From Candidatus Methanoperedens sp. (GTDB lineage Archaea; Halobacteriota; Methanosarcinia; Methanosarcinales; Methanoperedenaceae): a stretch of DNA of 32,000 nucleotides. Where the stretch lies: NCBI GenBank assembly GCA_027460535.1, contig JAPZAR010000009.1:47819-79818 (forward strand). Direction: 5' to 3'. This document shows, piece by piece, positions 1,748 to 32,000 of this stretch. The notes below the pieces were generated by a model. That model was not told where the DNA came from. It saw only the letters and a list, made by a program, of their open reading frames with translations, and ran no database searches. Made by a program: the position numbers and the translations under genes. Numbering within the stretch: position 1 is the first letter of the stretch; every line of letters begins with the position of its first letter.

Positions 1748-1748
1748 T

Positions 1749-2780: not shown

Positions 2781-2834
2781 CGTATCACATTTATTTAATT
2801 TTTATTCATATATTATTAATTAATTGCCCACAAT

Positions 2835-3980: not shown

Positions 3981-3983
3981 TCT

Positions 3984-4997: not shown

Positions 4998-5170
4998 ATC
5001 TTTATTTTTCTCTTTTATTACATTCTTAATAGATAATAATGGTGCATGGGTTTCTAGCTGAAGAATAACGGTCCGCATAAAACACAATTTCTGTTCCATA
5101 TTGTGTAGCAAATATTATAAGCTCCGCTACCTCTGCACGGCCTTTTATCATAGCACTAGCTCAATACAAC

Positions 5171-5530: not shown

Positions 5531-5557
5531 TTTTGAATCCTCTTTTATGGTACCAGA

Positions 5558-7983: not shown

Positions 7984-8109
7984 TCAATTCTCCATTCTGA
8001 CGAAGCACTCCAAATTTACCCACTGTTCAGCATTCTCATGGGTGAATATCTCTGCTCCGCCCGCTGCAGGATTCTTGATGTCACGCCAGTTGTAAAAAAG
8101 TATTCTCAT
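7984..8109 (-). pseudogene. Remnant of a GT4 glycosyltransferase N-terminus (41 codons)
   Basis: My translation is MRILFYNWRDIKNPAAGGAEIFTHENAEQWVNLECFVRMEN*. The first ~30 aa match the characteristic N-terminus of many GT4 enzymes as I recall it (MxILxxNWRDxxNPxAGGAExxxxE). The frame then diverges and stops. The ORF exactly fills the gap between two GT2 genes. Confidence 0.45.
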
Positions 8110-8111
8110 AT

Positions 8112-9228: not shown

Positions 9229-9351
9229 TTTATGCATCATTGCAGTATTGAAGGATTAACCAGTGGTGGATATCCTATTGAGAATGAGATAAATCACCAA
9301 GTGGCGAAGAGAATCTCTGCCTATTATAATAAGAATAAGGAGGAAATACTA

Positions 9352-16786: not shown

Positions 16787-16869
16787 CTTTGGATAACTTA
16801 ATAATTCTAACACTCATGCTTTTGCACGTAGTTCCCAATTTCCTTGACTTTGGTGCAAACAATACTGCT

Positions 16870-17106
16870 TTATTTTTCATCTGTAGCCTCTTTGGATGAA
16901 TACATCCATAGCGGCTTCTTTTCACTGCCTACATTGCGTCGCTGGATTTTATCTGTCTCAAGCAGGATTGTTATGAGATTCTCTGCCGTTGATTTGCTGC
17001 AACCAAGGCTATTTATTATTTCACGCAGCGATTTTTCACGAACATATAGCAAGACCAATACTTGCTCGGTTGTGAATTTTTTTTGATACTGGTGTTCTAA
17101 ATGCAT
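16870..17106 (-). CDS. Small winged-helix/HTH DNA-binding protein
   Basis: 78 aa with an HTH-like core (KSLREIINSLGCSKSTAENLITILLETDKIQRRNVG). A GAGGTGA Shine-Dalgarno sits 3 nt before the ATG. The start overlaps the upstream gene by 10 nt. Confidence 0.55.
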   Translation of the reverse strand: MHLEHQYQKKFTTEQVLVLLYVREKSLREIINSLGCSKSTAENLITILLETDKIQRRNVGSEKKPLWMYSSKEATDEK

Positions 17107-17351
17107 CGCGTCACCTCAATCATATTAAGGGCAGCTAAATTAGTTCCATCGGTAATTTCATCGATGGCTTCAACGTAAAGACTTTCACTGATCGTCGCTG
17201 AGGTTTTTTTTGCAATCCGGGTACTCCTGGCGTTCGTTACGTCCCGCCTCCGGATGAGCACGGCAGATGCCACGGCAGCCACCATTGCAATGAATATCAT
17301 GGGCGTGCCTATACCTGCCAGCGCCTCCTCAGTCTTTATTAATGCCTTCAT
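17097..17351 (-). CDS. Archaellin/type IV pilin N-terminal-domain mini-protein (84 aa)
   Basis: MKALIKTEEALAGIGTPMIFIAMVAAVASAVLI matches the archaellin class III signal and hydrophobic core (consensus ...G-IGTLIVFIAMVLVAAVAA-VLI). The downstream ...SESLYVEAIDEITDG... resembles ...ASGLQVIRVLG.... A strong Shine-Dalgarno is present (AGGAGGAGGAaacgtacATG). Full archaellins are about 200 aa or more. Confidence 0.6.
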   Translation of the reverse strand: MKALIKTEEALAGIGTPMIFIAMVAAVASAVLIRRRDVTNARSTRIAKKTSATISESLYVEAIDEITDGTNLAALNMIEVTRCI

Positions 17352-17608: not shown

Positions 17609-18010
17609 ATGGATAAAGAAATCTGCACCTGTCCAAAATGCGGTAATCAAGATAACATTTGGCATGGTTACAGATACAACAAATCCGGGGAAAAAAGACT
17701 GAGGAAATGCAAAGGCTGCGGTACAAAATTCACTCCAGATGATGGATTCCTGAGACGGCGTTTCCGGAAAGAGCATATCAAGGAGGCGGTCTCCCTTCGC
17801 CAGAGCGGTCTTTCGCTGGGCAAGGTTAAGGAGCATATGCAGCAGCGCCACGGGATTGAGGTTTCGCGATGGATGATTAGTCTGTGGTGCCGGGATTATT
17901 TCAGGAGTATGGATAAATTCACTGAAACAGTTATGCCAGATATAAAAGGAAATGCGCATGCTGGAGACGTAATTGTGATCAAGGATAACAGAAACTTGGA
18001 TGAGATATGA
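17609..18010 (+). CDS. Zn-ribbon + HTH protein resembling the N-terminal DNA-binding part of IS1/IS6-type transposases; no DDE domain
   Basis: CPKCGNQDNIWHGYRYNKSGEKRLRKCKGCGTKFT is a CxxC...CxxC zinc ribbon. It is followed by an HTH-like stretch (EAVSLRQSGLSLGKVKEHMQQRHGIEVSRWMISLWCRDY). The ORF ends at 133 aa near AHAGDVIVIK, roughly where the first catalytic D region (WHxDE) would sit in IS6-type enzymes. Confidence 0.5.
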   Translation: MDKEICTCPKCGNQDNIWHGYRYNKSGEKRLRKCKGCGTKFTPDDGFLRRRFRKEHIKEAVSLRQSGLSLGKVKEHMQQRHGIEVSRWMISLWCRDYFRSMDKFTETVMPDIKGNAHAGDVIVIKDNRNLDEI

Positions 18011-18052: not shown

Positions 18053-19648
18053 ATGAAAGGAAATTATAAAATTGGAATTGCAGTTTTACTGTTGGTTACG
18101 ATAACAGCAGCGTCGGCAGCTACACAGATCGGAGACAATATAACTGTTGCGAATAACGTCACAGCACAGAACTTTATAGGTAATTTAAATTGGGCATATT
18201 TATTAGGAATTCCTACAGATTTTCCGAACTCGACAGCGGTAACAGCAAACAATACAGCGAATGGTGCTGTTCAAACTTCGCTTTATAATGGCGACTTCCC
18301 GAATACCTCTTTGCCGAATTATCTTTTGATTTCAACATACGGTACCGACTTCCCGAACTTGACAGCAGTAACAGCAAACAATACAGCGAATGGTGCTGTT
18401 CAGACTTCGCTTTATAATGGCGACTTCCCGAATACCTCTTTGCCGAATTATCTTTTGATTTCAACATACGGTACCGACTTCCCGAACTCGACAGCAGTAA
18501 CAGCAAACAACACAGCGAATGGTGCTGTTCAGACTTCGCTTTATAATGGCGACTTCCCGAATACTTCCTTGCCGAATTATCTTTTGATTTCAACATACGG
18601 TACCGACTTCCCGAACTCGACAGCAGTAACAGCAAACAACACAGCGAATGGTGCTGTTCAAACTTCGCTTTATAATGGCAACTTCCCGAATACCTCTTTG
18701 CCTAATTATCTTTTGATTTCAACATACGGTACCGACTTCCCGAACTCGACAGCAGTAACAGCAAACAACACAGCGAATGGTGCTGTTCAAACTTCACTTT
18801 ATAATGGCAACTTCCCGAACAGTTCTGTCCTGACAAAAGAACCGGCAATCACAGGCTCAACCTCAAATACTTTTTGGAATGGATTAAAACAATTTGTTAC
18901 TCTATCAAGCGGATTGATTACTGATTTTTCAGCAGCGGTAAGAACAAATATATCAGCAACAGGTAATGCTACTTACAACTCAGCCACCGGAGTGATTGAT
19001 GCTCTTACCAATATAACAGCAGTAAGGACTTCAATATCAGCAACAGGCAATGCTACTTATAATTCATCGACTGGTGTAATTGACGCATTAACTAACATCA
19101 CTGCAGTAAGGAATTCAATATCATCAAGCAGCGGGCTTGTATCTTATAATTCTTCGACAGGAGTAGTATCGGATAGCATCAATTCATCTGCAAATCTGTA
19201 TAATATAAATGGCAGTAATGTAACAAGTGGCAAAGTAAATAGTCAATTCCTTAATATAACCAATATTACGTCGTATTTATCTAGTAATAAAGTTACACCA
19301 AACAACAACGTATACGTTGTCGGGCCTACCATAAATCTTCAAGCCGGCACATGGTTTCTTAATGGAGGAGTTACAGTATCCGAAGTCGGAGGTGCTGGTT
19401 CACTAAAAGTAGTAACGTGTAATATGTCACAAGGTGGCACAAATGTAATATCTTCAGGTGAAGCTGCTAGCAATGCCGTACCAGCGGTAATCCAATTGTC
19501 CGGGCTTATATCCCTTAGTTCACCAGCTACCGCACAGATTGCTTGTGCCGGTGGTGCTCAAAATGCAACTATCTATGCGGCTGTACCTGATAATGCTGGA
19601 GGAGCAGGAAATACTGCAAGCTATATTACAGCGCTAAGGATCGGATAA
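18053..19648 (+). CDS. Secreted repeat protein, tail-fibre/adhesin-like
   Basis: cGGAGGA Shine-Dalgarno 7 nt upstream. Signal peptide MKGNYKIGIAVLLLVTITAASAATQ. The protein has 4.7 x 43-aa repeats and 3 x 28-aa repeats (AVRTxISATGNATYNSxTGVIDALTNIT). The C-terminal ~130 aa is Gly/Ala/Ser-rich, probably a beta domain, and ends ASYITALRIG. Confidence 0.75.
   Translation: MKGNYKIGIAVLLLVTITAASAATQIGDNITVANNVTAQNFIGNLNWAYLLGIPTDFPNSTAVTANNTANGAVQTSLYNGDFPNTSLPNYLLISTYGTDFPNLTAVTANNTANGAVQTSLYNGDFPNTSLPNYLLISTYGTDFPNSTAVTANNTANGAVQTSLYNGDFPNTSLPNYLLISTYGTDFPNSTAVTANNTANGAVQTSLYNGNFPNTSLPNYLLISTYGTDFPNSTAVTANNTANGAVQTSLYNGNFPNSSVLTKEPAITGSTSNTFWNGLKQFVTLSSGLITDFSAAVRTNISATGNATYNSATGVIDALTNITAVRTSISATGNATYNSSTGVIDALTNITAVRNSISSSSGLVSYNSSTGVVSDSINSSANLYNINGSNVTSGKVNSQFLNITNITSYLSSNKVTPNNNVYVVGPTINLQAGTWFLNGGVTVSEVGGAGSLKVVTCNMSQGGTNVISSGEAASNAVPAVIQLSGLISLSSPATAQIACAGGAQNATIYAAVPDNAGGAGNTASYITALRIG
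18221..18825 (+). repeat. In-frame tandem repeat, 129-bp unit x ~4.7
   Basis: Unit starts (ttcccgaact) fall at 18221, 18350, 18479, 18608 and 18737, an exact 129-bp spacing. Only a few substitutions separate the units. The encoded unit is FPNSTAVTANNTANGAVQTSLYNG(D/N)FPNTSLPNYLLISTYGTD. Confidence 0.9.
18935..19186 (+). repeat. In-frame tandem repeat, 84-bp unit x 3
   Basis: Units begin at 18935, 19019 and 19103 (gc[g/a]gtaag[a/g]...). The third copy is more divergent. Confidence 0.85.
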
Positions 19649-19689
19649 GGTTTGGTCTTTGATGGATAAACTTGTCATATAAAAATAAT

Positions 19690-22600
19690 ATGAGACTGTT
19701 TATTTATTTGATAGGCATTGCATTGATAATCGGAGTAGCTTCGGCTGACGTCAGCATTGTAGACGACACTCTTTTCAACCTCGGCAATGGTGCCTTCATT
19801 AAAGTCCTTGCAGTCCAGAACTCGACAAACATCACCGTATACAGTTCAACAAATTCACCGGCATCCACGCTCCAGTTTTACATCAACGGCACAGCGATAA
19901 GATTCACCGCAAACACCAATAAAACGCTCTCAAATATTTCTTATGATAATGCGACCGATGTCGTAACATACACCGGGAATGGCACTGATGGCTATCTCAA
20001 TGTATCGACGCGAATGCAAGTATCATCGGTAAATTATGGATTGAAGGTTGACGGAGTTGTTGACCAAAGGCAACAATCCAATGCTACCGGGTGGGTGACA
20101 TTCAATTACACAGGATGGAGCCCGAATCTGCATGTCTTTGAAATATCGAATCGAACATATATTCCTCCAGCACCCACGAACCTGATCAATGTCAGCGATA
20201 ACTTTTATGTGAACCACAGCTGGCAGGCAGGATCAGGAAACATAACGGATTCGTACAATGTAAGCGTCAATGGTACCTGGCATAATGGTGCAAACAGTAC
20301 CTATTACAATAATTCAGGTTTAGCTCCACACGGCTGGAGCAACATCTCGGTATATTCATACAACAGTTCAGGTACAGGCACGATGAACACCACGGCTGTA
20401 TCCCAGAACACCCGGGTCCCGGATAATCCAGTAACGATAACTAATATTTCAGATTCATATAATCTCAATGACAGTGAGACTCTTTACATAGCTGCGAATT
20501 GCACTGACATAGACGGCGACACATGCATTTTTAATAGGAATTTCACTCAAGGGACATTCGATTCATCTACGGGAATACTCAACTGGCAGGCAGGATACGG
20601 AAATTATAGCTGGCAGATTAACGTCACTGATGGGTTTGGTTCAGTTTCCAGGAAGAATTTCACAGTTGCGGTAAACGACATCCACCCCCCATCGCAGGTA
20701 ACTAATTTTCATAACTCTACCATCCCAACTGCGGATTCAGTCAATGTTGCATGGAACGCAAGCAATGACGGTGCAAACGGCTCTGGGATTAAGGAATACA
20801 GAATTGAGCGAACCAATGAATCGTTCAATTACATGACCATTGATAGGCCCATAATAAATGCAACTGGAATAGCATCGGGGTACGAGAACGATTCTTACTG
20901 GTATACTTTCAAGACCAATGAACCGGTTAACTGTCAGGGATGCCACGTCAATGGAAGGACGAGAATAGGCAATTTCTGGACCAAATACAATACAACGTAC
21001 CTCTACGTGATGGTGCATGCACCGGATAACGACACAAATATAAGCGATGATAACATAAGTCTTGCATTCGACGTGAACAGGGATAGTGGCACAGCTCCGC
21101 AGCCGGATGACCAGATGTATGAAATTACTGAGCAGAACAACCTTCTCCGCTATACAGGCAACGGCACAGATTGGGTCGCAAACAGTACCAGTGCTGTAAG
21201 TGCCGTAGCGGGTGCAGGTTCAAAAGCGCCAGTATATGAGATAAGAATTCCACTATCTGAAATAGGCAGCCCTTCTAATAACACGCCTATAAATTTCTTA
21301 TTTGAGAACGTATGTACCGGCAGCGGTGATTTTATAGAGAGGCACACATATTTCCCGAAAAACCCAAACGCCAGCGAAAAGGATCCAAGTTCGTGGGGAT
21401 TGATAACATTCAGGAGCCTCACGGATTATGTTCAGATAGCCAATCCATCAGGAACTTCTTATATGATTGCGGATCTAAAGGATGGTTTCAGGTATGACTT
21501 CACAGCTAAGGCCGTGGATAATGTCGGCAATACAGGTCAGCGTTCAGACCCATTGATTATTCAGACTGCGGGAGATCTCGGTTACAATATCTCAGGGTAC
21601 GTTTTTAATTACCTTGGAAATCCAATACCAAATGTTCGTGTCCAGACGCCCAAAGACTATATCGTAAGTTCGCATTCAAATGGCGATTATTTCTTAGAAG
21701 AGCTGATTAATTTTACTTATGATGTTACTGCAAGCAGCGGAGTTTACAGCAGCGATATCACACAAGTTACAGTAAATGGCGCTGATGTTCATAATGTCAA
21801 TATCACAATTCCGCATATTACAGTAAACGCCACAGACTTGGTCACTGCATGCGGGAATTTCTATTGCAACTCAACATGGACTGCTGGAGGTAACACTACA
21901 TCGTTTAATATAAGCCAAAATGAAACCTGGTATAATGGCACTACCAATAATTATTTTAACGTCTCGATCAGCCCGCATGAATACAGCAATATCACAGTGT
22001 CTGGTTACAATGACTATACGACAGCTCTTAGTATTGGAAGTGTAACGCAGAACACTTCAATCCAGAACAATCCTGTTACAATAGGCAACATATCAGATAA
22101 CTATTCATTGATCGAAGGGCAAACCCTCATCATATATCCAAATTCAACCGATGCGGACAGTGACACTCCGACGTTTGCCAGGAATTTCACGAACGGTACG
22201 TTCTACACGAATAACGGCACAATGCTCTGGACGACTACGGGCAGCGATATAGGCATTCATTCCTGGCAGATAAACGTGACTGATGGGTATGGTTCGGTTT
22301 CCTCTGCAAATTTCACGGTAACCGTGAATTCATTCGAAGTGAGCCTGACAAATATATCTGCTTTAACAAATACTACTTTTGCAGGAACAAATGCGATCTA
22401 TATTCTCAATCTGACCAATAACGGTACAGCAGGAGCGGATACGTATAATCTCACGATCGATAATACAAACGGAGCATCCGCTTCCTTGAACGTCTCCCCG
22501 GATTTTGTGTATGTGCCTCAAGCCGGAAGCGTAATATTCGCACTCAATGTAACCAATGCATCGTCAGGAATATTCCGTGTCAATGTCACAGCAACCTCGG

Positions 22601-25600
22601 TGAATAACTCAAATAAGATTGCATACATCAATACCACAACGACTGTGAATGCTGTCAGGGCAGTCAGCCTGAGTGTGGATCCTACTGCAAGGACCACATC
22701 AGCTGGAACCAATGCAACCTACGTACTCAACATCACCAACAACGGCAGCGACCCGGATACCTATACTCTCCTTGTAACCAATGCCAGCAGTGCCTCCGTA
22801 GCATTGCTGAACATCTCCTCCCCAACATCCACGCTCGGTTCAGGTCAGAGCCTGATCCTCGCCCTTAACGTCACCAATACCTCTTCAGGCACATTCCTTG
22901 TGAATGTAACCGCAACCTCAAGCAGCGATGCCACGAAATTCGCCTATGTCAATACCACAACGACTGTGAATGCGGTCAGGGCAGTTAACCTGACCGTAAA
23001 TCCAAGCGAACAGGCAACATCCACAGGCACCAATGCCACCTATCTCCTCAACCTCACCAATAACGGTACTGATGCAGATACCTATACTCTCGTCGTTACT
23101 AACGCAAACAATGCATCAACCGCTTTGTTGAATACCTCATTGAGCCAGAGCCTGAATGCAGGGCAGAGCCTGATATTGGCTCTTAACGTGACCAATTCAT
23201 CAGCAGGTTCAGGTACTTTCAATGTAAATGTAAGTGCCACCTCAAGCGATCCTACTAAGTTCGCGTTCGTCAATACCACAACGACTGTGAATGCGGTCAG
23301 GGCAGCCAACCTGACCGTAAATCCAGGCGAACAGGCAACATCCACAGGCACCAATGCCACCTATATCCTCAACCTCACCAATAACGGTACTGATGCAGAT
23401 ACCTATACTCTCCTTGTAACCAATTCCAGCAGTGCCTCCGTAGCATTGCTGAACATCTCCTCCCCAACATCAACGCTCAGTCCGGGTCAGAGCCTGATCT
23501 TCGCCCTTAACGTCACCAATGCCTCTTTGGGCACATTCCTTGTGAATGTAACCGCAACGTCAAGCAACGATGCCACGAAATTCGGCTATGTCAATACCAC
23601 CACGACTGTGAATGCGGTCAGGGCAGTCAGCCTTACAGTAAATACAGCCGCCCAGACAACATCTGCCGGAACCAATGCCACCTACGTACTCAACCTCACC
23701 AATAACGGTACTGATGCAGATACCTATACTCTCCTTGTAACCAATTCCAGCAGTGCCTCCGTAGCATTGCTGAACATCTCCTCCCCAACATCCATGCTCA
23801 GTCCGGGTCAGAGCCTGATCTTCGCCCTTAACGTGACCAATACCTCTTCGGGCACGTTCAAGGTGAATGTAACCGCAACCTCAAGCAGCGATGCCACGAA
23901 ATTCGCCTATGTCAATACCACAACGACTGTGAATGCTGTCAGGGCTGTTAGTTTAAGCATAGATGCTCCTTCAAAGGACACCGATGCCGGCGTGAATGCC
24001 ACCTACGTGCTCAATCTTACCAATAACGGCAGCGACCCGGATTCCTATGCCTTGCTGGTAACCAACGCGAGCAATGCCTCTGTAGCGGCTCTCAATATCT
24101 CCTCGCCCACTTCTACGCTCAGTCCGGGTCAGAGCCTGATCTTCGCCCTTAACGTGACCAATACCTCTTCGGGTACGTTCAAGGTGAATGTAACCGCAAT
24201 CTCGCAGGGCAACAATTCGAAGTTCGCCAGCGTGAATACCACAACTGTGATGGGTGCTATCCGGGGTGTCAGTTTAAGCATAGACGCTCCTTCAAAGAGC
24301 ACCGACGCCGGCGTGAATGCCACCTACGTGCTCAATCTTACCAATAACGGTACTGATGCGGATACCTATACTCTCCTTGTAACCAATTCCAGCAGTGCTT
24401 CCGTAGCATTGCTGAACATCTCCTCCCCAACATCCACGCTCGGTTCAGGTCAGAGCCTGATCTTCGCCCTTAACGTCACCAATACTTCTTCGGGTAACTT
24501 CAGCGTCAATGTAACCGCAACCTCAAGCATCAATGCCACAAAATTCGCCTATGTCAATACCACAACGGCTGTGAATGCGGTCAGGGCAGTCAGCCTGACC
24601 ATCAATACAACTGCCCAGACAACATCAGCCGGAACCAATGCCACCTATATCCTCAACCTCACCAATAACGGTACTGATGCAGATACCTATACTCTCATCG
24701 TTACTAACGCAAACAGTGCCTCAACCGCTCTTCTGAATACCTCATTGAGCCAGAGCCTGAATGCAGGACAGAGTGTTATATTCGCCCTTAACGTCACCAA
24801 TACCTCCTCAGGCACATTCCTCGTGAATGTAACCGCAACCTCAGGCAACGATGCCACAAAATTCGCCTATGTCAATACCACCACGATTGTGAATGCAGTC
24901 CCGACTTACATACCTCCGACCCCGACAGATTTATCGAGCACTCAGGGTAATTTCTGGATAAACTACACATGGAGTGCAGGGAGCGGGAGCGTAACGGATT
25001 CATACAATGTAAGCGTCAACGGCACATGGCATAACGGAACAAACAGTACCTATTACAATAATTCAGGTTTAGCTCCACATGGCTGGAGCAACATCTCGGT
25101 CTATTCCTTCAACAATTCAGGCACGGGCACGCTGAACAGCACTGCCGTATCCCAGAACACCCGGGTGCCGAACAACGTACCTGTCCAGGCATCGATCGGC
25201 AACAAGAACGTGTACGAGAACGAGACATTGAGCTTCACGGTCTCTGCAACAGACGCAGACGGCGATACCATGACCTTCGGCACCAATGCATCAAAAGGCA
25301 GCCTCAATACAACAACAGGCTTATTCACCTGGACGCCCACGTTCGGGGACTCAGGGATTTACGTCTGGTACTTCAATTCAAGCGACGGGTACGAAGGTAT
25401 AGCGACTGAAACCATAACAGTGACCGTGAACAATATCCCATTAACAATCACCTCGCGTTCACCCGGCACCGACCCGACCACAATCGTAGATACAGGTCAG
25501 ACCTTCACTGTAAACCTGAACAGGAGTGCAAACGTCACCTGGTACATCAACGGCATATCTGTCCAGGGAAACACCAGCATAACCTCGGCAAGCTATACCA

Positions 25601-28600
25601 ACCTAACTTCCGGTGTGGGTGTGCATAACCTAACAGCAATGGTATCCGATGCTTTCGATACCACTCCAACCATGTGGAACTGGACTGTAACTGCATTCCC
25701 GACCCACATGCCCCCGACCCCTTCCAATCTTACCAGCAGCACAGGATATTACTTCGTGAACCACAGCTGGCAGGCAGGAGACGGGAACGTAACGGACAGC
25801 TATAACGTCAGCGTAAACGGCACATGGCAAAACGACACGACCGGTACCTATTACAACAATTCAGGGTTGTCTGCACACGGTTGGAGCAACATCTCGGTCT
25901 ATTCCTTCAACACTTCAGGCACAGGAGCCCTTAACGAAACCCCGGTAACCGCAAATACCCAGGTTCCCAACAACGTTCCTGTCCTCACACCAATCGTAGA
26001 TAAAGTCGTGACTGCAGGCATCTGGCTGAATTTCACAGTCGTTGCGACGGATGCAGACGGCGATCCTTTAACCTACGGCACCAATGCCACCAGGGGAGCA
26101 CTCGATCCTGCATCAGGTAACTTTAACTGGTCAACCACAGGCAGCGATGTGGGAACCTATGTGTGGTACTTCAGCTCAAGTGATACCTACGGCGGTGTTG
26201 CATCAGGAACAATAACAGTGACCGTGACTGCTGCTCCCACGTATCTCCCGCCAAGCCCGGTGAACCTTGCCAGCACCACAGGGAATTTCTATGTCAACCA
26301 TACCTGGAATGCAGGCTCAGGAAACGTAACCCACAGCTATAAAGTGAGTGTGAATGGTACATTTCAAAATATTGGGTTGAACTGGAGTGCTGGTATCCCA
26401 GTGGGAGTTGGTATTCTTGCATTGACTTATGCTGGAAACGGAACTGTTATCGCTGGTGATTACTCTAATGGTAATATTTATCGTTCAACAGACTATGGTC
26501 AAACCTGGGGTGCTGGTATTTCAGTTGGAAGTAGTATTGGTGGACTAACCTATACTGGCAACGGGGTTATTATCGCTGCTGATAGCAATAACGGTAATAT
26601 TTATCGTTCGACAGACTATGGTCAAACCTGGAGTGCTGGTATTCCAGTCGGGAGTGCTATTTTTGAATTGACGTATGCTGAAAACGGAACAGTTATCGCT
26701 GCTGATAGCAATAACGGTAATATTTATCGTTCAACCGACTATGGTCAAACCTGGAGTGCTGGTATTCCAGTTGGGAGTGTTTATTATGCATCGACTTATG
26801 CCGGAAACGGAACTGTTATCGCTGGTGATTATGCCAATGGTAATATTTATCGTTCCACAGACTATGGTCAAACCTGGAGTGCTGGTATTCCAGTCGGGAG
26901 TAGTATTGGTGTAATAACCTACGCTGGAAACGGAATTGTATTCGCTGCTGATAGCAATAACGGTAATATCTATCGTTCAACCGATTATGGTCAAACCTGG
27001 AGTGCTGGTATTCCAGTCGGGAGTGTTATTTTTGCATTGACTTATGCAGGCAACGGAATTGTTATCGCTGGTGAGGACAGTGACGGTGATATTTATCGTT
27101 CAACCGACTATGGTCAAACCTGGAGTGCTGATATTCTAGTCGGGAGTGGTATTGATGGGATAATCTATATTGGAAATGGAATTGTTATCGCTGGTGATTA
27201 CAAAAACGGTAATATTTATCGTTCGGATCCTACCTATACTACGCATACCTATTACAACAATTCAGGGTTGTCTGCACACGGATGGAGCAACATCTCGGTC
27301 TATTCCTTCAACAATTCAGGCACAGGAACCCTTAACGAAACCCCGGTAACCGCAAACACCCAGGTTCCCAACAATCCGGTCTCGATAGGGAATGTATCGA
27401 GCAGCTACACATTAACCGCGGGTGACATGTTATCGATATATCCGACTTCGAGCGATCTGGACGGCGACACTCCCACGTTTGCCAGTAATTTCACCAACGG
27501 TACGTTCTACGCGAATAACGGCACACTGTTCTGGACGACAACGGGCAGCGATGAAGGCATCCATTCCTGGCAGATAAACGTGACAGACGGGTACGGGTCG
27601 GTCTCCTTTGCAAATTTCACGGTAACCGTGACCGCAGTACTTGCACCCAACATCACTTCCTGGGGCAATAACAAGACCAACAATGAGAGCTTGACTTTAA
27701 CCCTGAACAATAGCGAAGGCATAAGGTTCAATGCCACTGCAAACCAGAGTATAACCACATGGACATGGTTCCAGGACGACGTTAACCAGAACAATAACTA
27801 TGACAATTTCTCAACCAGCCTCACTGGCGGAAATCATACCATTAAAGTCAATGCAACCAATGGTAACGGGGTAAGCAATACTATTACCTGGATTGTTACG
27901 ATAACTCCAACGCCAACCATCTCACCGGTAATCACAGGCTTTGCTCCTTCTTCGCCCGTAATTGATATCGTGGGTGCAACTAGAACCTTCAACATCACCG
28001 TTAACCAGACCGTGAACGTAACCTGGTATGTCAACGGAACGCAGGCTCAGACAAATACGAGTGTGACTAATGCAGGTTATACCAACGCCAGTGCAGGACT
28101 TGGCGTATGGAACGTAACAGCCACTGCAGCCAATTCCAATGGTGTCGTATCACAGGTATGGATATGGAATGTGACAGCAGCACCGAGTGGAGCACCTAAC
28201 ATAACCAGTTTTGCTCCTTCTTCGCCCGTAAATGATATCGTGGGTGTAACTAGAATATTCAACATCACCGTTAACCAGACCGTGAACGTAACCTGGTACA
28301 TCAACGGAACGCAGGCTCAGACCAATATCAGTGTGACCGATGCCAGTTATACCAACACCAGTGCAGTCCTTGGAGTATGGAACATATCAGCAAATGCAGC
28401 CAATTCCAATGGCGTTGTTTCACAGGCGTGGATCTGGAACGTGACAGCAGCCCCGACAGGAACACCTAATATAACCAGTTTTGCCCCGGCTTCGCCTGTA
28501 AACGATATCGTGGGTGCAACTAGAACATTCAACATCATCGTTAACCAGATCGTGAATATAACATGGTACATCAACGGAACTCAGGTTCAGACAAGTATGA

Positions 28601-29715
28601 GTGTGACCGGTGCCAGTTATACTAACACCAGTGCAGTCCTTGGAGTATGGAACATAACAGCCACTGCAACCAATTCCAATGGTGTTGTATCACAGGTATG
28701 GATGTGGAACGTGGCAGCAGCACCAACCCCGGCACCCACTCGGAAATCTGTTACCGGCGGCGGTGGGGGTGGCGGAGGTGGAGAAGGCGCAAAATCCTCG
28801 GAACCGCCCATAAACATTGAGTCGTTTGAGCTTGCGGAACAATACTTAGGAGCAAATACTCCTGCCTCTTATATATTCACTACACCAAACCTTGTAATTT
28901 CTGAAGTGTTAATAACTCCTGCAAGGAACTTTGGAACTACAAGCATAAGAATAGAAACGCTCAAAAATTTATCAAACAGAGAAGGGATGACACCACCCCC
29001 AGGAATTGTTTATAAATATGTTAATATCTGGGTCGGTGCAGGGGATATCGATAGTCCAGACAGCATCATAGACGCATTCATAGGGTTTGAAGTCGATCGC
29101 GGCTGGCTTGCGCAGAATAACCTTGAGGAGAATAATATAAGACTTCTTAGATGGGACGGAAGCAAGTGGAACTCGCTGGATACTCAGCCAACGAGCAGTG
29201 ATGAAACATTCGCATATTATTATTCAAGAACCAACGCATTCTCGCCTTTTGCAATAGTTGCCCTTCCCCTTTATCCATCTGCCACAGCTCAGGCAGGCGA
29301 AACTCCAATAACAGAGGCTCCAATGCAAGAGCTAATAAAACAGTTGGCGGTAGAACGGGTATCCTGGCTGTGGATGTATGCATTAATTGCTTTGATACTT
29401 ATCAGCCTTGCCCTTTATAAATTAAGTAAATACCAAAAAAAGGCAATTAAAGTTTATGAAGCTGTGGCGATAAAGCCAGAGAATGCCGATGCATGGTATG
29501 GTAAAGGCGCCGAGCTTCAGGAGATAGGGAAATACGAAGAGGCAATAAAATCTTATGATAAGGCTATAGAGATAAATCCAGAATATTCCAATGCTTGGAA
29601 TAACAAAGGTTTTGCCCTCTATGAATTAGGGAAATACGAAGAGGCAGCAAAGGCATATGATAAAGCAAGAGAGATAATCCATCGAAGCAGGCAATCGGAT
29701 GAGGACTCTTTATGA
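19690..29715 (+). CDS. Giant (3341-aa) modular surface glycoprotein with a PGF-pre-PGF domain, TM helix and cytoplasmic TPR tail
   Basis: The ORF track start at 19672 is a TTG. ATG 19690 gives the signal peptide MRLFIYLIGIALIIGVASA/DV. Modules, read by eye, in order: five FN3-like plus cadherin-like/He_PIG pairs (acidic DxDxDGD motifs); an FN3 with a CBM9-like insert; a CarboxypepD_reg-like domain; eight 107-aa CARDB/NEW3-like repeats; a seven-unit Asp-box propeller; five NVTWYING-type Ig-like modules; a G9 linker; a PGF-pre-PGF domain; TM; TPRs. Confidence 0.9.
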   Translation: MRLFIYLIGIALIIGVASADVSIVDDTLFNLGNGAFIKVLAVQNSTNITVYSSTNSPASTLQFYINGTAIRFTANTNKTLSNISYDNATDVVTYTGNGTDGYLNVSTRMQVSSVNYGLKVDGVVDQRQQSNATGWVTFNYTGWSPNLHVFEISNRTYIPPAPTNLINVSDNFYVNHSWQAGSGNITDSYNVSVNGTWHNGANSTYYNNSGLAPHGWSNISVYSYNSSGTGTMNTTAVSQNTRVPDNPVTITNISDSYNLNDSETLYIAANCTDIDGDTCIFNRNFTQGTFDSSTGILNWQAGYGNYSWQINVTDGFGSVSRKNFTVAVNDIHPPSQVTNFHNSTIPTADSVNVAWNASNDGANGSGIKEYRIERTNESFNYMTIDRPIINATGIASGYENDSYWYTFKTNEPVNCQGCHVNGRTRIGNFWTKYNTTYLYVMVHAPDNDTNISDDNISLAFDVNRDSGTAPQPDDQMYEITEQNNLLRYTGNGTDWVANSTSAVSAVAGAGSKAPVYEIRIPLSEIGSPSNNTPINFLFENVCTGSGDFIERHTYFPKNPNASEKDPSSWGLITFRSLTDYVQIANPSGTSYMIADLKDGFRYDFTAKAVDNVGNTGQRSDPLIIQTAGDLGYNISGYVFNYLGNPIPNVRVQTPKDYIVSSHSNGDYFLEELINFTYDVTASSGVYSSDITQVTVNGADVHNVNITIPHITVNATDLVTACGNFYCNSTWTAGGNTTSFNISQNETWYNGTTNNYFNVSISPHEYSNITVSGYNDYTTALSIGSVTQNTSIQNNPVTIGNISDNYSLIEGQTLIIYPNSTDADSDTPTFARNFTNGTFYTNNGTMLWTTTGSDIGIHSWQINVTDGYGSVSSANFTVTVNSFEVSLTNISALTNTTFAGTNAIYILNLTNNGTAGADTYNLTIDNTNGASASLNVSPDFVYVPQAGSVIFALNVTNASSGIFRVNVTATSVNNSNKIAYINTTTTVNAVRAVSLSVDPTARTTSAGTNATYVLNITNNGSDPDTYTLLVTNASSASVALLNISSPTSTLGSGQSLILALNVTNTSSGTFLVNVTATSSSDATKFAYVNTTTTVNAVRAVNLTVNPSEQATSTGTNATYLLNLTNNGTDADTYTLVVTNANNASTALLNTSLSQSLNAGQSLILALNVTNSSAGSGTFNVNVSATSSDPTKFAFVNTTTTVNAVRAANLTVNPGEQATSTGTNATYILNLTNNGTDADTYTLLVTNSSSASVALLNISSPTSTLSPGQSLIFALNVTNASLGTFLVNVTATSSNDATKFGYVNTTTTVNAVRAVSLTVNTAAQTTSAGTNATYVLNLTNNGTDADTYTLLVTNSSSASVALLNISSPTSMLSPGQSLIFALNVTNTSSGTFKVNVTATSSSDATKFAYVNTTTTVNAVRAVSLSIDAPSKDTDAGVNATYVLNLTNNGSDPDSYALLVTNASNASVAALNISSPTSTLSPGQSLIFALNVTNTSSGTFKVNVTAISQGNNSKFASVNTTTVMGAIRGVSLSIDAPSKSTDAGVNATYVLNLTNNGTDADTYTLLVTNSSSASVALLNISSPTSTLGSGQSLIFALNVTNTSSGNFSVNVTATSSINATKFAYVNTTTAVNAVRAVSLTINTTAQTTSAGTNATYILNLTNNGTDADTYTLIVTNANSASTALLNTSLSQSLNAGQSVIFALNVTNTSSGTFLVNVTATSGNDATKFAYVNTTTIVNAVPTYIPPTPTDLSSTQGNFWINYTWSAGSGSVTDSYNVSVNGTWHNGTNSTYYNNSGLAPHGWSNISVYSFNNSGTGTLNSTAVSQNTRVPNNVPVQASIGNKNVYENETLSFTVSATDADGDTMTFGTNASKGSLNTTTGLFTWTPTFGDSGIYVWYFNSSDGYEGIATETITVTVNNIPLTITSRSPGTDPTTIVDTGQTFTVNLNRSANVTWYINGISVQGNTSITSASYTNLTSGVGVHNLTAMVSDAFDTTPTMWNWTVTAFPTHMPPTPSNLTSSTGYYFVNHSWQAGDGNVTDSYNVSVNGTWQNDTTGTYYNNSGLSAHGWSNISVYSFNTSGTGALNETPVTANTQVPNNVPVLTPIVDKVVTAGIWLNFTVVATDADGDPLTYGTNATRGALDPASGNFNWSTTGSDVGTYVWYFSSSDTYGGVASGTITVTVTAAPTYLPPSPVNLASTTGNFYVNHTWNAGSGNVTHSYKVSVNGTFQNIGLNWSAGIPVGVGILALTYAGNGTVIAGDYSNGNIYRSTDYGQTWGAGISVGSSIGGLTYTGNGVIIAADSNNGNIYRSTDYGQTWSAGIPVGSAIFELTYAENGTVIAADSNNGNIYRSTDYGQTWSAGIPVGSVYYASTYAGNGTVIAGDYANGNIYRSTDYGQTWSAGIPVGSSIGVITYAGNGIVFAADSNNGNIYRSTDYGQTWSAGIPVGSVIFALTYAGNGIVIAGEDSDGDIYRSTDYGQTWSADILVGSGIDGIIYIGNGIVIAGDYKNGNIYRSDPTYTTHTYYNNSGLSAHGWSNISVYSFNNSGTGTLNETPVTANTQVPNNPVSIGNVSSSYTLTAGDMLSIYPTSSDLDGDTPTFASNFTNGTFYANNGTLFWTTTGSDEGIHSWQINVTDGYGSVSFANFTVTVTAVLAPNITSWGNNKTNNESLTLTLNNSEGIRFNATANQSITTWTWFQDDVNQNNNYDNFSTSLTGGNHTIKVNATNGNGVSNTITWIVTITPTPTISPVITGFAPSSPVIDIVGATRTFNITVNQTVNVTWYVNGTQAQTNTSVTNAGYTNASAGLGVWNVTATAANSNGVVSQVWIWNVTAAPSGAPNITSFAPSSPVNDIVGVTRIFNITVNQTVNVTWYINGTQAQTNISVTDASYTNTSAVLGVWNISANAANSNGVVSQAWIWNVTAAPTGTPNITSFAPASPVNDIVGATRTFNIIVNQIVNITWYINGTQVQTSMSVTGASYTNTSAVLGVWNITATATNSNGVVSQVWMWNVAAAPTPAPTRKSVTGGGGGGGGGEGAKSSEPPINIESFELAEQYLGANTPASYIFTTPNLVISEVLITPARNFGTTSIRIETLKNLSNREGMTPPPGIVYKYVNIWVGAGDIDSPDSIIDAFIGFEVDRGWLAQNNLEENNIRLLRWDGSKWNSLDTQPTSSDETFAYYYSRTNAFSPFAIVALPLYPSATAQAGETPITEAPMQELIKQLAVERVSWLWMYALIALILISLALYKLSKYQKKAIKVYEAVAIKPENADAWYGKGAELQEIGKYEEAIKSYDKAIEINPEYSNAWNNKGFALYELGKYEEAAKAYDKAREIIHRSRQSDEDSL
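20932..20946 (+). other. CXXCH motif (CQGCH), candidate covalent haem c site
   Basis: tgt cag gga tgc cac is in frame. It uses two of the seven Cys I counted by eye in the 3341-aa protein. It lies ~25 aa before the CBM9/DOMON-like core (TYLYVMVHAPDND). The motif is certain; the function is speculative. Confidence 0.35.
22342..24900 (+). repeat. In-frame tandem array, 8 x ~321 bp (107-108 aa CARDB/NEW3-like domain)
   Basis: Unit starts fall at 22342, 22666, 22987, 23308, 23629, 23950, 24271 and 24592. The conserved core is GTNATY(V/I/L)LNLTNNGTDADTYTL...ALNVTNTSSGTF.VNVTATS...KFAYVNTTTTVNAVRAV. Confidence 0.95.
26380..27230 (+). repeat. In-frame tandem array, 7 x 123 bp (41-aa Asp-box/BNR blades)
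   Basis: ggt(aat/gat)at(t/c)tatcgttc recurs at 26470, 26593, 26716, 26839, 26962, 27085 and 27208, an exact 123-bp period. The unit is SAGIPVGS.I..LTYAGNG.VIA.D..NGNIYRSTDYGQTW, and STDYGQTW fits S-x-D-x-G-x-T-W. Confidence 0.95.
27925..28734 (+). repeat. In-frame tandem array, 3 x 270 bp (90-aa Ig-like module)
   Basis: Units start at 27925, 28195 and 28465. The unit is P(N/V)IT.FAP.SPV.DIVGATRTFNITVNQTVNVTWYINGTQAQTN.SVT.A.YTNTSA.LGVWN.TA.A.NSNGVVSQVW.WNVTAAP. More divergent copies lie at ~25435 and ~27640. Confidence 0.9.
28798..29265 (+). other. PGF-pre-PGF domain (TIGR04213-like) of the giant protein
   Basis: SEPPINIESFE...VYKYVNIWVGAG...IGFEVDRGWLAQNNLEENNIRLLRWDGSKWNSLDT...AFSPFAIVA is colinear with 10501..10950 in the PGF-CTERM protein. 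Both domains are preceded by a poly-Gly linker. Confidence 0.75.
29365..29690 (+). other. TM helix plus TPR tail module
   Basis: WLWMYALIALILISLALY-KLSKYQKK-AIKVYEAVAIKPENADAWYGKGAELQEIGKYEEAIKSYDKAIEINPEYSNAWNNKGFALYELGKYEEAAKAYDKAREIIHR. By my hand alignment it is ~70% identical to the tail of the 14045..16786 protein. Confidence 0.8.
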
Positions 29716-29884
29716 ATGGTCTTTAATTTATTCTGTTCTTAACAATGCTTTGCAGCATAAGAGTAAAGATGCCACCTATGTCTCCCTGGATGTACTGAGG
29801 CTGATACGTGAGGCAGAAGACAAGGTGAAACGGCTTGCTCCAGGTGAATATAGAAAAATTCTTATAGATGCTGTAAATCCTTGA
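29699..29884 (+). CDS. Hypothetical small protein (61 aa), paralogue of the next ORF
   Basis: The ATG overlaps the giant gene's end by 17 nt. It shares the ALxHKS...LxxDxLRxIxExDxKxK pattern with 29907..30164. No family recognised. Confidence 0.3.
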   Translation: MRTLYEWSLIYSVLNNALQHKSKDATYVSLDVLRLIREAEDKVKRLAPGEYRKILIDAVNP

Positions 29885-29906
29885 CGTCTTAATTGATTAC
29901 GAAATT

Positions 29907-30164
29907 GTGGGAAATTATAAGAACTTACGGAAAGCATTGCTGCATAAAAGCGATACTGTTGCGCATTTGGCCATAGACCTTCTCAGGAAAATCAAAGAGG
30001 AAGATCAGAAAATTAAGGAAATAGAGCAACTCACGCAAAAGGGAACGAATCTCCAGATACAAAATGTGAGTTTTTTATGCACAATATTGAAAAAAATCAA
30101 AGAAGATCGACATCCAATTTTAATGAGCATTAAAAAGATAGAAAAGTATAATAGCATGACATGA
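29907..30164 (+). CDS. Hypothetical small protein (85 aa), paralogue of the previous ORF
   Basis: GTG start. KALLHKSDTVAHLAIDLLRKIKEEDQKIKEI aligns with NALQHKSKDATYVSLDVLRLIREAEDKVKRL. Confidence 0.3.
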   Translation: MGNYKNLRKALLHKSDTVAHLAIDLLRKIKEEDQKIKEIEQLTQKGTNLQIQNVSFLCTILKKIKEDRHPILMSIKKIEKYNSMT

Positions 30165-30498
30165 CATAACATTCAATGACCTGTACATAGGATAAATCGT
30201 AATGATGTCATGGCTGGGATAAGGTAAGTCAAATTGATTCTTTGATAGGAGAGTCTATCGACTTTCAGTAATTAATCCACCACATATTGTTGCGATTATA
30301 AAAGATAGTAGGATGGGAGGAATATAAAAATGAACTTAAAAATGGTAATGGTATTGTTGACTCTGGCTTTTATCCAGGGAGCGTCAGCACAACATACCCA
30401 AAACGCTGCGTGCGAATCTGCAGGTTGTCATAAGTACCCATCGGTATTTCTAAAAAATACCGTAAGTATACAGGGTATGTAACAATCAGGAGGTTATC

Positions 30499-32000
30499 AT
30501 GAAAAATAGAAATATTAAAAAATATAGAATCTTGAGACAAAGTGTGATGATCTCGATTATATTTTTCTCAATAGTAGTTTCTATCAATGCGGCAAGTGCT
30601 GTCGATAAAACGTACTACTGGACCCCATCGTCAGGAGCTATAGGTTCGTCAGGATTTACAGCCGACTGGGGAAATTGTAATGCTAAACCAACTTCTTACA
30701 GAATCACTACGCTCACCAGTACAGGATTCACATGCCTCAGCGATTATTTGACAAAGACTACATCTGGCGACCAGTATCTGGCAATTTATCCTACAGCATA
30801 TAGTTCTGATACTAAAATAGCAGGCAAAACAGGTGCTACTTTTTATTTGTCAAGTCAAAAGGCCGGCTATACTGCAACATATCGCTTTGATATGGGATAT
30901 GCTGTGGGAGGCACTTTTACATCATTGGGATATGTGACACAGAGTTCTTATAAAGGTAAAAACAATATCATAAATCTGAGTAACATTAGCGGTACCGCCC
31001 CCGCGGGATCATATCTTGCATTGAAAGTCTCGGTAACAACTTCAAAGGGCGGAAGAGTAAATCTGGGAACAAATGGTGGTTCTACCGGCTCAAACAGCGG
31101 CCGTTTCTATGTTACAGAGACCGCTGCAGCACCTACCCCGTTAAACGGAACGAGTCTGACAAATATAACACCACTCACCCAGTCAACTGTTGCTAGCGTG
31201 AATGCCACCTACGTGCTCAACCTCACCAATACCGGCAGTCTGACAGATAACTATATACTCACAACCTCAAATTCAGGCAGTGCACTTATTGGTCTGAATA
31301 TTTCATCGCCAGTGATGCTGGCTTCAGGAGCAAGCCAGATATTCCGTCTGAACGTTACAAAAGCGTCTGCAGGCAAATTCAATGTCAACGTCACAGCCAC
31401 ATCGCAGAATGATCCAACCAAGGTTGCGTTCGTAAATACCACAACCAATGTTACAGTGACCGCACCGCCGTTAAACGGTACGAGTCTCACCAATGTGACT
31501 TCGCTCAGCGCAACAGTGGTTGCTAGCGTGAATGCCACCTATGTGCTCAACCTCACCAATACCGGCAGTCTGACAGATAACTACATACTCACAACCTCAA
31601 ATCCAGGCAGTGCACTTATTGGTCTGAATATTTCATCGCCAGTGATGCTGGCTTCAGGAGCGAGCCAGATATTCCGTCTGAACGTTACAAAAGCGTCTGC
31701 AGGCAAATTCAATGTCAACGTCACAGCCACATCACAGAATGATCCAACCAAGGTTGCGTTCCTAAATACCACAACCAATGTTACAGTAACAGCGCTCGGA
31801 GCACCTAATATAACCAGTTTTGCTCCGCCTTCGCCTGCAAATGATATCGTGGGTGCAACTCGAACATTCAGCATCACCGTTAACCAGAGCGTGAACGTAA
31901 CCTGGTATATCAACGGAACTTTGGTTCAGACAAATACGGGTGTGACTAATGCCGGTTATACCAACACCAGTGCAGGACTTGGCGTATGGAACATAACAGC
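30499..32000 (+). CDS. Secreted modular surface glycoprotein, N-terminal 500 aa (continues beyond the right edge)
   Basis: Absent from the ORF track because there is no stop in the window. I translated 30499..31998 and found no stop codon. GGAGG at 30489..30493 lies 5 nt before the ATG. Signal peptide: MKNRNIKKYRILRQSVMISIIFFSIVVSINAASA. After a unique ~180-aa N-terminal domain come two 110-aa CARDB/NEW3-like repeats and an APNITSFAP...NVTWYING module homologous to those in the giant protein. Confidence 0.85.
   Translation, partial: MKNRNIKKYRILRQSVMISIIFFSIVVSINAASAVDKTYYWTPSSGAIGSSGFTADWGNCNAKPTSYRITTLTSTGFTCLSDYLTKTTSGDQYLAIYPTAYSSDTKIAGKTGATFYLSSQKAGYTATYRFDMGYAVGGTFTSLGYVTQSSYKGKNNIINLSNISGTAPAGSYLALKVSVTTSKGGRVNLGTNGGSTGSNSGRFYVTETAAAPTPLNGTSLTNITPLTQSTVASVNATYVLNLTNTGSLTDNYILTTSNSGSALIGLNISSPVMLASGASQIFRLNVTKASAGKFNVNVTATSQNDPTKVAFVNTTTNVTVTAPPLNGTSLTNVTSLSATVVASVNATYVLNLTNTGSLTDNYILTTSNPGSALIGLNISSPVMLASGASQIFRLNVTKASAGKFNVNVTATSQNDPTKVAFLNTTTNVTVTALGAPNITSFAPPSPANDIVGATRTFSITVNQSVNVTWYINGTLVQTNTGVTNAGYTNTSAGLGVWNIT
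31141..31800 (+). repeat. Tandem duplication, 2 x 330 bp
   Basis: 31141..31470 and 31471..31800 differ mainly in the first ~45 nt. After that I see only about six substitutions. Confidence 0.95.

Follow-up and report, generated by a model that had tools for sequence, protein, structure and literature searches.

A transmembrane helix and tetratricopeptide-repeat cassette ends two unrelated surface proteins of Candidatus Methanoperedens and may tie the cell surface to cytoplasmic partners

Archaeal proteins that combine a PGF-pre-PGF domain (TIGR04213; pre-PGF below) with a PGF-CTERM signal (TIGR04126) are presented as substrates of archaeosortase A (ArtA) by Haft et al. (2012), as that work is relayed in PMC5244752. 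ArtA has been reported in the ANME-2d genomes of anaerobic methanotrophic archaea (ANME), and pre-PGF domains outnumber PGF-CTERM domains by many in ANME-2 / Methanosarcinales genomes (PMC5244752); ANME surface cytochromes carry either single C-terminal anchors or PGF-CTERM (PMC9012536). Here, we analyse a stretch of 32,000 nt from the methane-oxidising archaeon Candidatus Methanoperedens sp. (contig JAPZAR010000009.1, positions 47,819 to 79,818; hereafter the window), which encodes a giant surface protein whose pre-PGF domain leads into a transmembrane (TM) helix of its own and a tail of tetratricopeptide repeats (TPRs). No ArtA gene was found in these 32,000 nt.

Like PGF-CTERM proteins, the giant protein has a signal peptide, an ectodomain, a poly-Gly stretch, a pre-PGF domain, a linker, a hydrophobic helix and basic residues; unlike them, it has no P-G-F, extends for approximately 98 TPR residues past the helix, and would not be expected to be lipidated by ArtA. 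Taken alone this difference is ordinary, the PGF motif being absent in about half of the nearest family members too. Proteins with GAIN or MAIN domains also align a signal peptide, adhesion domains, a beta-sandwich and a surface anchor in the order seen here. However, the pre-PGF domain lacks the His of their H-X-S/T; bacterial MAIN proteins use a sortase or SLH anchor and have no cytoplasmic domain, whereas the giant protein has one helix and a TPR tail; and adhesion G-protein-coupled receptors (GPCRs) have seven TM helices after GAIN, so that the giant protein, with one, does not qualify as an adhesion GPCR. In integrin- and cadherin-type adhesion receptors, short cytoplasmic tails bind the helical-repeat adaptors talin and catenin. 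The giant protein may be compared with these by analogy, without homology, as it joins a large modular ectodomain, a single helix and a small tail, with Arm/HEAT-like and coiled-coil proteins as candidate ligands. Finally, membrane-attached cytoplasmic TPR proteins were noted in Methanoperedens elements (PMC9674854); these resemble the giant tail in having a single helix and a short near-consensus TPR array at the (here predicted) cytoplasmic face. They consist essentially of anchor and TPRs, whereas here the TPRs end a 3200-residue adhesin and a DUF11 protein, and we claim no membership of the MamA family.

The giant gene covers approximately 10 kb, and its frame is uninterrupted through all C-terminal elements:

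19690..29715, plus strand: giant surface glycoprotein gene, 3341 aa (listed open reading frame (ORF) 19672..29715; real start ATG at 19690)
28756..28782, plus strand: poly-Gly lead-in (G9) before the pre-PGF domain, read from the sequence
28804..29262, plus strand: PGF-pre-PGF domain, a TIGR04213 match, modelled as a GAIN_B/MAIN-like beta-sandwich
29230..29256, plus strand: most conserved motif of the domain, T-N-A-F-S-P-F-A-I (family form T-x-x-F-S-P-F-A-I), on the last beta-turn and last strand
29263..29364, plus strand: linker from domain to membrane, of low confidence (predicted local distance difference test, pLDDT, approximately 50 at residues 160-189 and below 50 at 164-173 and 183-187)
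29365..29418, plus strand: TM helix WLWMYALIALILISLALY, Kyte-Doolittle mean 2.27 over 19 residues
29419..29442, plus strand: basic stop-transfer KLSKYQKK, directly after the TM helix
29443..29712, plus strand: TPR tail, with a half repeat (29443..29484), TPR 1 (29485..29586), TPR 2 (29587..29688) and the conserved end KAYDKAREIIHRS

Residue for residue, the translation equals NCBI MCZ7355925.1, ‘PGF-pre-PGF domain-containing protein [Candidatus Methanoperedens sp.]’, which comes from a metagenome-assembled genome; the protein is thus already known to public databases, under a generic name. From its N-terminus, it runs through a signal peptide (MRLFIYLIGIALIIGVASA), He_PIG/Big_9-like modules, nine CARDB-like repeats of approximately 107 aa, seven BNR/Asp-box blades and PKD-like modules to the C-terminal series of pre-PGF domain, linker, one TM helix, basic stop-transfer and 2.5 TPRs, the ectodomain amounting to approximately 3200 residues. 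In a second public assembly (P0121 versus P0267), the protein is one 107-residue repeat shorter (3234 versus 3341 aa). The two versions are identical over 1261 N-terminal and 1747 C-terminal residues, and the difference, located in the 22000..26000 region of the window, indicates either repeat-number variation or assembly collapse.

The C-terminal elements were analysed on the last 305 residues (28798..29712). A first-pass annotation, made from the sequence alone, had described a poly-Gly lead-in, a pre-PGF domain, a hydrophobic helix, KLSKYQKK and approximately 2.5 TPRs at this end of the protein. All of these are present in a single frame, and hidden Markov model (HMM) scoring agrees on the domain: TIGR04213 matches with 136 bits (cut-off 28, E 1e-39) over its full length (model positions 2-153 of 153, residues 3-155 of 305). 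The poly-Gly lead-in also occurs in another ORF of the window (9232..11139) and in most homologues, and the TM helix follows the end of the domain by 34 residues, a placement similar in nearly all of 151 representatives of the family. Past the helix, the half TPR reads AIKVYEAVAIKPEN, two full repeats follow, and the C-terminus reads ...KAYDKAREIIHRSRQSDEDSL. Within this tail, Pfam detects two repeats with TPR_1 (67 bits, cut-off 27.8, E 7e-19), and TPR_2 scores 60 bits; identity to designed consensus TPRs is 42-44%, and the best NCBIfam TPR match, MamA, reaches 56 bits, far under its cut-off of 200. The AlphaFold2 model of the 305-aa region (79-homologue alignment, mean pLDDT 88.7) displays a confident beta-sandwich, the low-confidence linker, a continuous helix at residues 190-220, which spans the TM segment and the juxtamembrane KKAIKVYEAV, and four TPR helices (230-242, 246-259, 264-276 and 280-304), with pLDDT above 90 for the helix pairs.

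The same annotation had proposed a type I protein held by its own TM helix, with a cytoplasmic tail. The signal peptide agrees with this orientation, as do the N-X-S/T sequons (223 before the TM helix and 0 after) and the K+R residues (2 in the 15 residues before the helix and 5 in the 15 after). Moreover, the ectodomain is composed of 37% N+S+T and 1.2% K, whereas the approximately 98 residues after the helix contain 14% K and 13% E. One hydrophobic segment lies in the 305-residue region and another in the N-terminal signal peptide, and no others were seen in the giant protein. Signal peptide, single TM helix, sequon split, K+R bias and contrasting composition make a type I protein, with its TPRs predicted to lie in the cytoplasm, the only simple reading of the sequence.

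For the absence of a PGF-CTERM signal, an internal comparison is available in the window:

9232..11139, plus strand: comparison surface protein; pre-PGF domain at 10507..10944, then a linker rich in T/P/A and a tail of PGF type (PGF at 11059)

This ORF matches TIGR04213 at 117 bits and ends ...KAPGFEMVTSLAALTVLITVFLRDRKRR, a PGF-type tail by eye, which bears out its earlier description as a pre-PGF domain, a T/P-rich linker and a PGF tail. The giant protein reads ...LAVERVSWLWMY... before its helix, where P-G-F is absent, and its helix, followed by 98 residues, is not at the extreme C-terminus as in the PGF-CTERM layout. The PGF-CTERM models (TIGR04126 and PF18204) gave no match in the giant protein, but they also miss the obvious PGF tail of ORF 9232..11139, and the Pfam model matches only 16 of 79 family members. 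We therefore rejected the silence of the NCBIfam and Pfam models as proof of absence, which is taken instead from the sequence itself (no P-G-F, approximately 98 residues after the helix).

A HMMER scan of 1.84 billion representative proteins retrieved 3204 with a TIGR04213 domain, and the C-termini of the 151 closest representatives were classed by a crude motif and hydropathy rule. Under this rule, a plain helix with a short basic tail (approximately 69) and a PGF-like motif with a helix (approximately 54) are the main types; a helix with a TPR tail is found in 9, all from Methanoperedens, a helix with another long tail in 6, and 13 are truncated or without helix. PGF-CTERM is one of two common fates of the pre-PGF domain, the uncoupling of the two is ordinary, and bare-helix anchoring of pre-PGF proteins is common and already known; only the TPR tail is rare among them. 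Lipid anchoring by ArtA, which the first-pass annotation took for the canonical fate, was thus overstated (approximately 69 plain TM against 54 PGF-like ends). The search that it proposed, for TIGR04213 proteins with C-terminal TPRs, leads, among these 151, to the 9 Methanoperedens proteins above. Further tails were also observed: P0007 (Ca. Methanoperedens) and P0231 possess, after the pre-PGF domain and TM helix, a charged, coiled-coil-like and presumably cytoplasmic tail of approximately 55 residues with the common motif NR-x-YI-x3-K-x-SI-x-KLK, and P0218, P0193, P0201 and P0245 possess still others, of 20-104 residues.

Approximately 3 kb from the giant gene, a second copy of the helix and TPR tail, missed by the first-pass annotation, ends another surface protein:

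14045..16786, minus strand: DUF11 surface protein, second cassette gene, within the 922-residue ORF 14045..16813 (minus strand)
14045..14392, minus strand: TM and TPR cassette at the end of the DUF11 protein; over 107 aa, identity to the giant cassette is 68% (E 5e-48)

The DUF11 protein is composed of a signal peptide, two DUF11/TRAP_beta-like units, a TM helix (WGYILIALIVIVLAL), RKYKKAIKVYE and 2.5 TPRs, and ends ...WGYILIALIVIVLALHGSRKYKKAIKVYEKTIEITPE...YDKAREIIHRG; it has no pre-PGF domain. Its helix is flanked by 2 K+R on the outer and 6 on the inner side. Between the two window cassettes, DNA identity is approximately 70%, with dS 0.75 and dN/dS 0.36, values that rule out a recent gene conversion and point to an old duplication under purifying selection. 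Tail lengths match within a genome (99/100 aa in the window and 68/68 aa in a second locus, L012; n=2 genomes).

The combination of pre-PGF domain, helix and TPRs was retrieved in 13 distinct loci, and that of DUF11, helix and TPRs in 4, every named one from Methanoperedens. The 13 giant-type loci come from independent assemblies (NCBI, ENA, JGI and Logan) and all have a continuous frame; with tail dN/dS values of 0.19-0.59, this recurrence and the purifying selection argue that the architecture is not due to chance. Among orthologues, the number of TPRs varies from approximately 1 to 3, with KKAIKVYE retained as the opening element and KAYDKAREIIH as the closing one. The unit made up of the TM helix, KYKKAIKVYE, the TPRs and KAYDKAREIIH is a portable C-terminal cassette specific to Methanoperedens. 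Indeed, approximately 100 other Methanoperedens DUF11 paralogues are without helix and TPRs; the cassette was thus added to the DUF11 family, which points to domain shuffling. Motif-guided scans of 185,579 species genomes (one per species) and of JGI metagenomes retrieved loci of Methanoperedens and, outside it, just two weak matches (32-33% identity over part of the query). A wide distribution was accordingly rejected, within the scope of a narrow motif that diverged cassettes would escape. The TPR-only matches of the protein search were set aside as well, since in none was an ectodomain followed by a helix and C-terminal TPRs, and many were secreted or N-terminally anchored. The DUF11 paralogues themselves (P0320-P0420, approximately 100 proteins of approximately 570 aa) end in a Cys motif (…LNSILGCND…ACNFF…) and have no membrane anchor; a Cys-less relative of this motif, IFLNSILFGEPQ, sits between the two DUF11 units of the 922-aa protein, which from its sequence looks like a DUF11 tandem duplication plus the cassette.

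The giant-type loci also share a gene neighbourhood. In 10 of the 12 with downstream DNA, the surface gene is followed on the same strand, after approximately 100-350 nt, by a set of genes for a 165-aa Arm/HEAT-like protein (arm165), a HEAT-like protein of approximately 230 aa (heat230) and a coiled-coil protein. In three loci (L001 2272..3753, L002 1695..3110 and L005 from 2820), the gene directly after the TM-TPR surface gene encodes a protein of 470-490 aa that joins a heat230-like N-terminus to tandem coiled-coil repeats and an archaellum ArlD/E domain; none of the three genes belongs to an archaellum operon. Pfam scores among the downstream proteins are 24.7 bits for Arm (cut-off 20.6) and 74 bits for Arch_fla_DE, and no N-terminal hydrophobic, signal-like segment was seen by eye in the inspected sequences of the set. 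The arm165 family comprises 50 clusters, every named member being from Methanoperedens, and one genome carries two such loci (L015 and L016). Genes upstream of the two cassette genes recur as well:

16870..17106, minus strand: 78-aa small protein, directly upstream of the DUF11-TM-TPR gene (described at first pass as a winged helix-turn-helix protein)
18053..19648, plus strand: 531-aa secreted repeat protein, directly upstream of the giant gene

The 78-aa protein, which has no Pfam match, is 74% identical to the product of a gene at the equivalent position in L012, where it accompanies a DUF11-TM-TPR orthologue (61% identity, full length) located 4 kb beyond the downstream set; it is also present at the contig edge in L016. 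The two cassette genes are therefore neighbours in both the window and L012, two divergent genomes. In L010, L012 and L016, too, the giant gene has a homologue of the 531-aa protein on its upstream side. Signalling-type genes were observed near some of these sets. In L012 (22923..24361), a response regulator and a HisKA/HATPase histidine kinase lie between the coiled-coil and DUF11-TM-TPR genes. A Roadblock/LC7 protein beside a GTPase is found near the triad of arm165, heat230 and coiled-coil genes in L015 (19325..20498), approximately 7.4 kb past its last gene, and in L017 (8225..9840), directly upstream of it; the Pfam types of the GTPases differ (Ras/Arf in L015, MMR_HSR1/YGR210-like in L017), and this proximity may be coincidental.

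As for the pre-PGF domain, a fold search with the whole C-terminal model was swamped by TPR matches, and the domain was therefore re-modelled alone with AlphaFold2 (pLDDT 95.7, predicted TM-score 0.90). Adhesion-GPCR GAIN domains make up six of the top 13 Foldseek matches of this isolated domain in the PDB and all of the top five; the six are BAI3 4dlo (E 4e-4, TM 0.47), CD97 9mqr (TM 0.50), CELSR1 8vy2, BAI2 8oek, CD97 8ikj and GPR110 8hc0. The query-normalised TM-scores of the GAIN matches, at 0.39-0.50, are borderline, the likeness being judged from the Foldseek scores. At the sequence level, Pfam GPS, GAIN and ZU5 gave no match to the domain, a single-sequence search of PDB sequences gave none, and a profile search returned only TPR and low-complexity matches. 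On the model, a GAIN-like fold is likely.

GAIN domains are cut between L and S/T of H-L-S/T-x-F-A-V. The most conserved columns of the pre-PGF domain, over 79 homologues, are T (75), F (76), S (70), F (77), A (72) and I (78) of T-x-x-F-S-P-F-A-I, which spans the last turn and the last strand, with strands at 138-145 and 150-155 of the domain model by DSSP. Position -2 is A, S, G or T in 76 of the 79, Ala in the giant protein, and His in none. In the model, the conserved F-S at this turn would correspond in position to the GPS/HFS site at which GAIN/MAIN domains cut themselves, without the catalytic His. The recently described microbial MAIN domains are cut between F and S of H-F-S, and the MAIN proteins tabulated include Methanoperedens and Methanosarcina surface proteins ending in a ‘ZU5’ domain (Brogan & Rudner, bioRxiv 2026, 10.64898/2026.05.12.724683). 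The archaeal pre-PGF domain is probably part of this MAIN set, although the preprint does not name pre-PGF.

The presence of the same helix and tail on two unrelated surface proteins suggests a route that ties the surface to cytoplasmic partners. From the sequence and the models, the Sec signal peptide is predicted to send the heavily N-glycosylated ectodomain of approximately 3200 residues outside the cell, and the membrane-proximal pre-PGF sandwich is followed by the flexible linker and the single TM helix; this helix holds the giant protein permanently, no lipidation by ArtA being expected. Inside the cell, we propose, the TPR tails could dock the giant adhesin and the DUF11 protein on a shared scaffold built of the Arm/HEAT-like (165 aa and approximately 230 aa), coiled-coil and ArlD/E-domain proteins, and docking of this kind may position, cluster or mechanically brace the surface proteins. 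We infer a signalling or partner-binding role of the tail, and the idea of a cytoplasmic partner is indirectly supported by the conserved downstream Arm/HEAT-like, coiled-coil and ArlD/E genes. That the cassette is a permanent anchor docking surface proteins to a cytoplasmic scaffold has, in our judgement, about an even chance of being right.

Several observations weigh against this proposal. In the window itself, the downstream set is decayed:

29732..29881, plus strand: arm165 remnant (the ‘61-aa ORF’), residues 46-95; 61-71% by tblastn to the intact genes of L001, L008, L010, L012 and L013
29877..30149, plus strand: heat230 remnant (the ‘85-aa ORF’), residues approximately 116-218, in a different frame; 45-80% by tblastn

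The 61- and 85-aa ORFs (29699..30164), put forward at first pass as partners of the tail, are out of frame and correspond to internal parts of two larger genes, which other Methanoperedens genomes keep intact downstream of the orthologous surface gene; they are unlikely to serve as functional partners here. The first 45 codons of arm165 were lost by deletion, together with everything from arm165 codon approximately 95 to heat230 codon approximately 116. Any partner would accordingly need to come from elsewhere in the genome. In addition, L014 has the surface gene without the downstream set, in L017 the Arm/HEAT/coiled-coil triad occurs with no surface gene beside it, and adjacency of the genes could result from shared regulation or function without physical contact. 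The variation in TPR number argues against a fixed peptide-binding groove, and the tail of the giant protein is less conserved than its pre-PGF domain (48% versus 77% between the window and L002 by tblastn). Lastly, Methanosarcinales-type TPR proteins close to the giant tail (P0022, P0033, P0035 and others) carry N-terminal signal peptides. From their sequences, near-consensus TPR arrays seem also to be exported in such archaea, and the presence of near-identical TPRs in secreted proteins of related archaea makes the type of TPR uninformative on the compartment.

A simpler role would be that of a passive anchor, in which the helix and a folded TPR plug hinder pull-out or shedding and no specific partner is involved. 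The variable number of repeats, the moderate conservation, the decay of candidate partner genes in the window and their absence in L014 are all consistent with a plug, and for most of the family a helix with a few basic residues suffices. We nevertheless consider it rather unlikely, as KKAIKVYE and KAYDKAREIIH are common to two protein families, tail lengths are equal within a genome, linkage to cytoplasmic repeat proteins is strong, and a plug has no need of near-consensus TPRs. The tails could also bind each other and thereby co-cluster the giant adhesin and the DUF11 protein with no further partner. The cassette does sit on two neighbouring surface proteins with matched tail lengths in two genomes, and the nearest structural and sequence neighbours of the tail include self-assembling MamA and designed TPR oligomers; no DUF11-TPR gene was seen, however, in 9 of the 13 giant-type loci, most of these loci being short, and we regard this explanation as improbable.

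The fold of the pre-PGF domain raises another explanation, that of a mechanosensory receptor: force on the adhesin would release or rearrange the ectodomain at the GAIN/MAIN-like domain, and the remaining stub (last strand, helix and TPR tail) would change its cytoplasmic interactions, so that the protein would be comparable in function, in an archaeon, to adhesion GPCRs or polycystin-1. It draws on the GAIN domains heading the PDB fold matches (4dlo, 9mqr, 8vy2, 8oek, 8ikj and 8hc0), on the conserved F-S-x-F-A-I where GAIN has H-L-S/T-x-F-A-V and MAIN has H-F-S, on the response regulator and histidine kinase inside the L012 cluster, and on the Methanoperedens and Methanosarcina proteins in the MAIN table (bioRxiv 10.64898/2026.05.12.724683). 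Yet the catalytic His occurs in 0 of 79 homologues, TM-scores do not exceed 0.5, no signalling output domain is fused to the giant protein, and the same preprint holds that MAIN domains serve in protein release, not in signalling. Such a receptor thus appears doubtful, and it is equally doubtful that the pre-PGF domain is a GAIN/MAIN-type force-sensitive module wired by the helix to a TPR tail that engages the Arm/HEAT, coiled-coil and ArlD/E-like proteins. If true, it would constitute a prokaryotic adhesion receptor reporting or passing surface mechanical events inward, and an exception to the release-only view of microbial GAIN-like domains. Very unlikely, in our opinion, is a sorting signal, recognized during biogenesis by a dedicated factor and then removed, as PGF-CTERM is by ArtA: although the cassette stands where PGF-CTERM and other C-terminal sorting domains stand, is lineage-restricted and is common to several surface proteins, the outer flank of the helix, the side of archaeosortase cleavage, shows no conserved motif, the approximately 100 folded residues of the cassette are far above known sorting signals, and the Pfam matches listed for genes called in the examined loci include no archaeosortase/exosortase family. 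As for a TPR tail created by misassembly, frameshift or fusion with a downstream gene, which the deletions in the downstream DNA of the window might evoke, it is refuted by the recurrence of a continuous frame in 13 independent assemblies and by the purifying selection on the tail.

The window also contains a third surface-protein gene:

30571..32000, running off the window end: third surface-protein gene, with a signal peptide and CARDB-like ‘NLTNTGSLTDNYILTTSN’ and ‘APNITSFAP...VNVTWYINGT’ modules as in the giant protein

On the minus strand, the repeats of this gene give rise to two shadow ORFs, 31251..31538 and 31581..31913. Just upstream, at 30330..30482, a 50-aa ORF with a signal peptide and C-x4-C-H (CESAGCH) resembles the start of a c-type cytochrome and is possibly another gene remnant. 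On the minus strand, 341..9050 forms a glycosylation island beside the surface-protein genes, encoding four glycosyltransferases (three GT2, one GT1), an NAD-dependent epimerase/dehydratase and a pair of B12-binding radical SAM enzymes; GC content falls to 0.34-0.36 in the first 4 kb of the window. Two small ORFs lie between the cassette genes. One, of 133 aa (17609..18010), has two C-x2-C pairs in its first 40 residues and no Pfam match, and presumably resembles the N-terminus of IS1-type transposases; the other, of 84 aa (17097..17351, minus strand), has a weak archaellin/pilin-type N-terminus (Arch_flagellin E 8e-4, below the cut-off).

Full-text literature searches gave no account of a helix-TPR cassette ending giant surface proteins, of its sharing by two protein families or of its linkage to a cytoplasmic gene set, all of which appear to be new. 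These results also correct a habit of annotation, in that the name ‘PGF-pre-PGF’ does not entail PGF-CTERM. With a GAIN/MAIN-like domain next to the membrane, the cassette proteins would lend themselves to testing whether a GAIN-like domain of a microbe can act on an output inside the cell. More generally, archaeal surface proteins are usually discussed as lipid-anchored by archaeosortase or held by a bare helix, and how the surface is linked to the cytoplasm is little known. Methanoperedens matters for methane cycling, and its surface biology, including aggregation and extracellular electron transfer, is poorly understood; the cassette, together with the linked cytoplasmic genes, is a concrete candidate for a surface-cytoplasm connection in these archaea.

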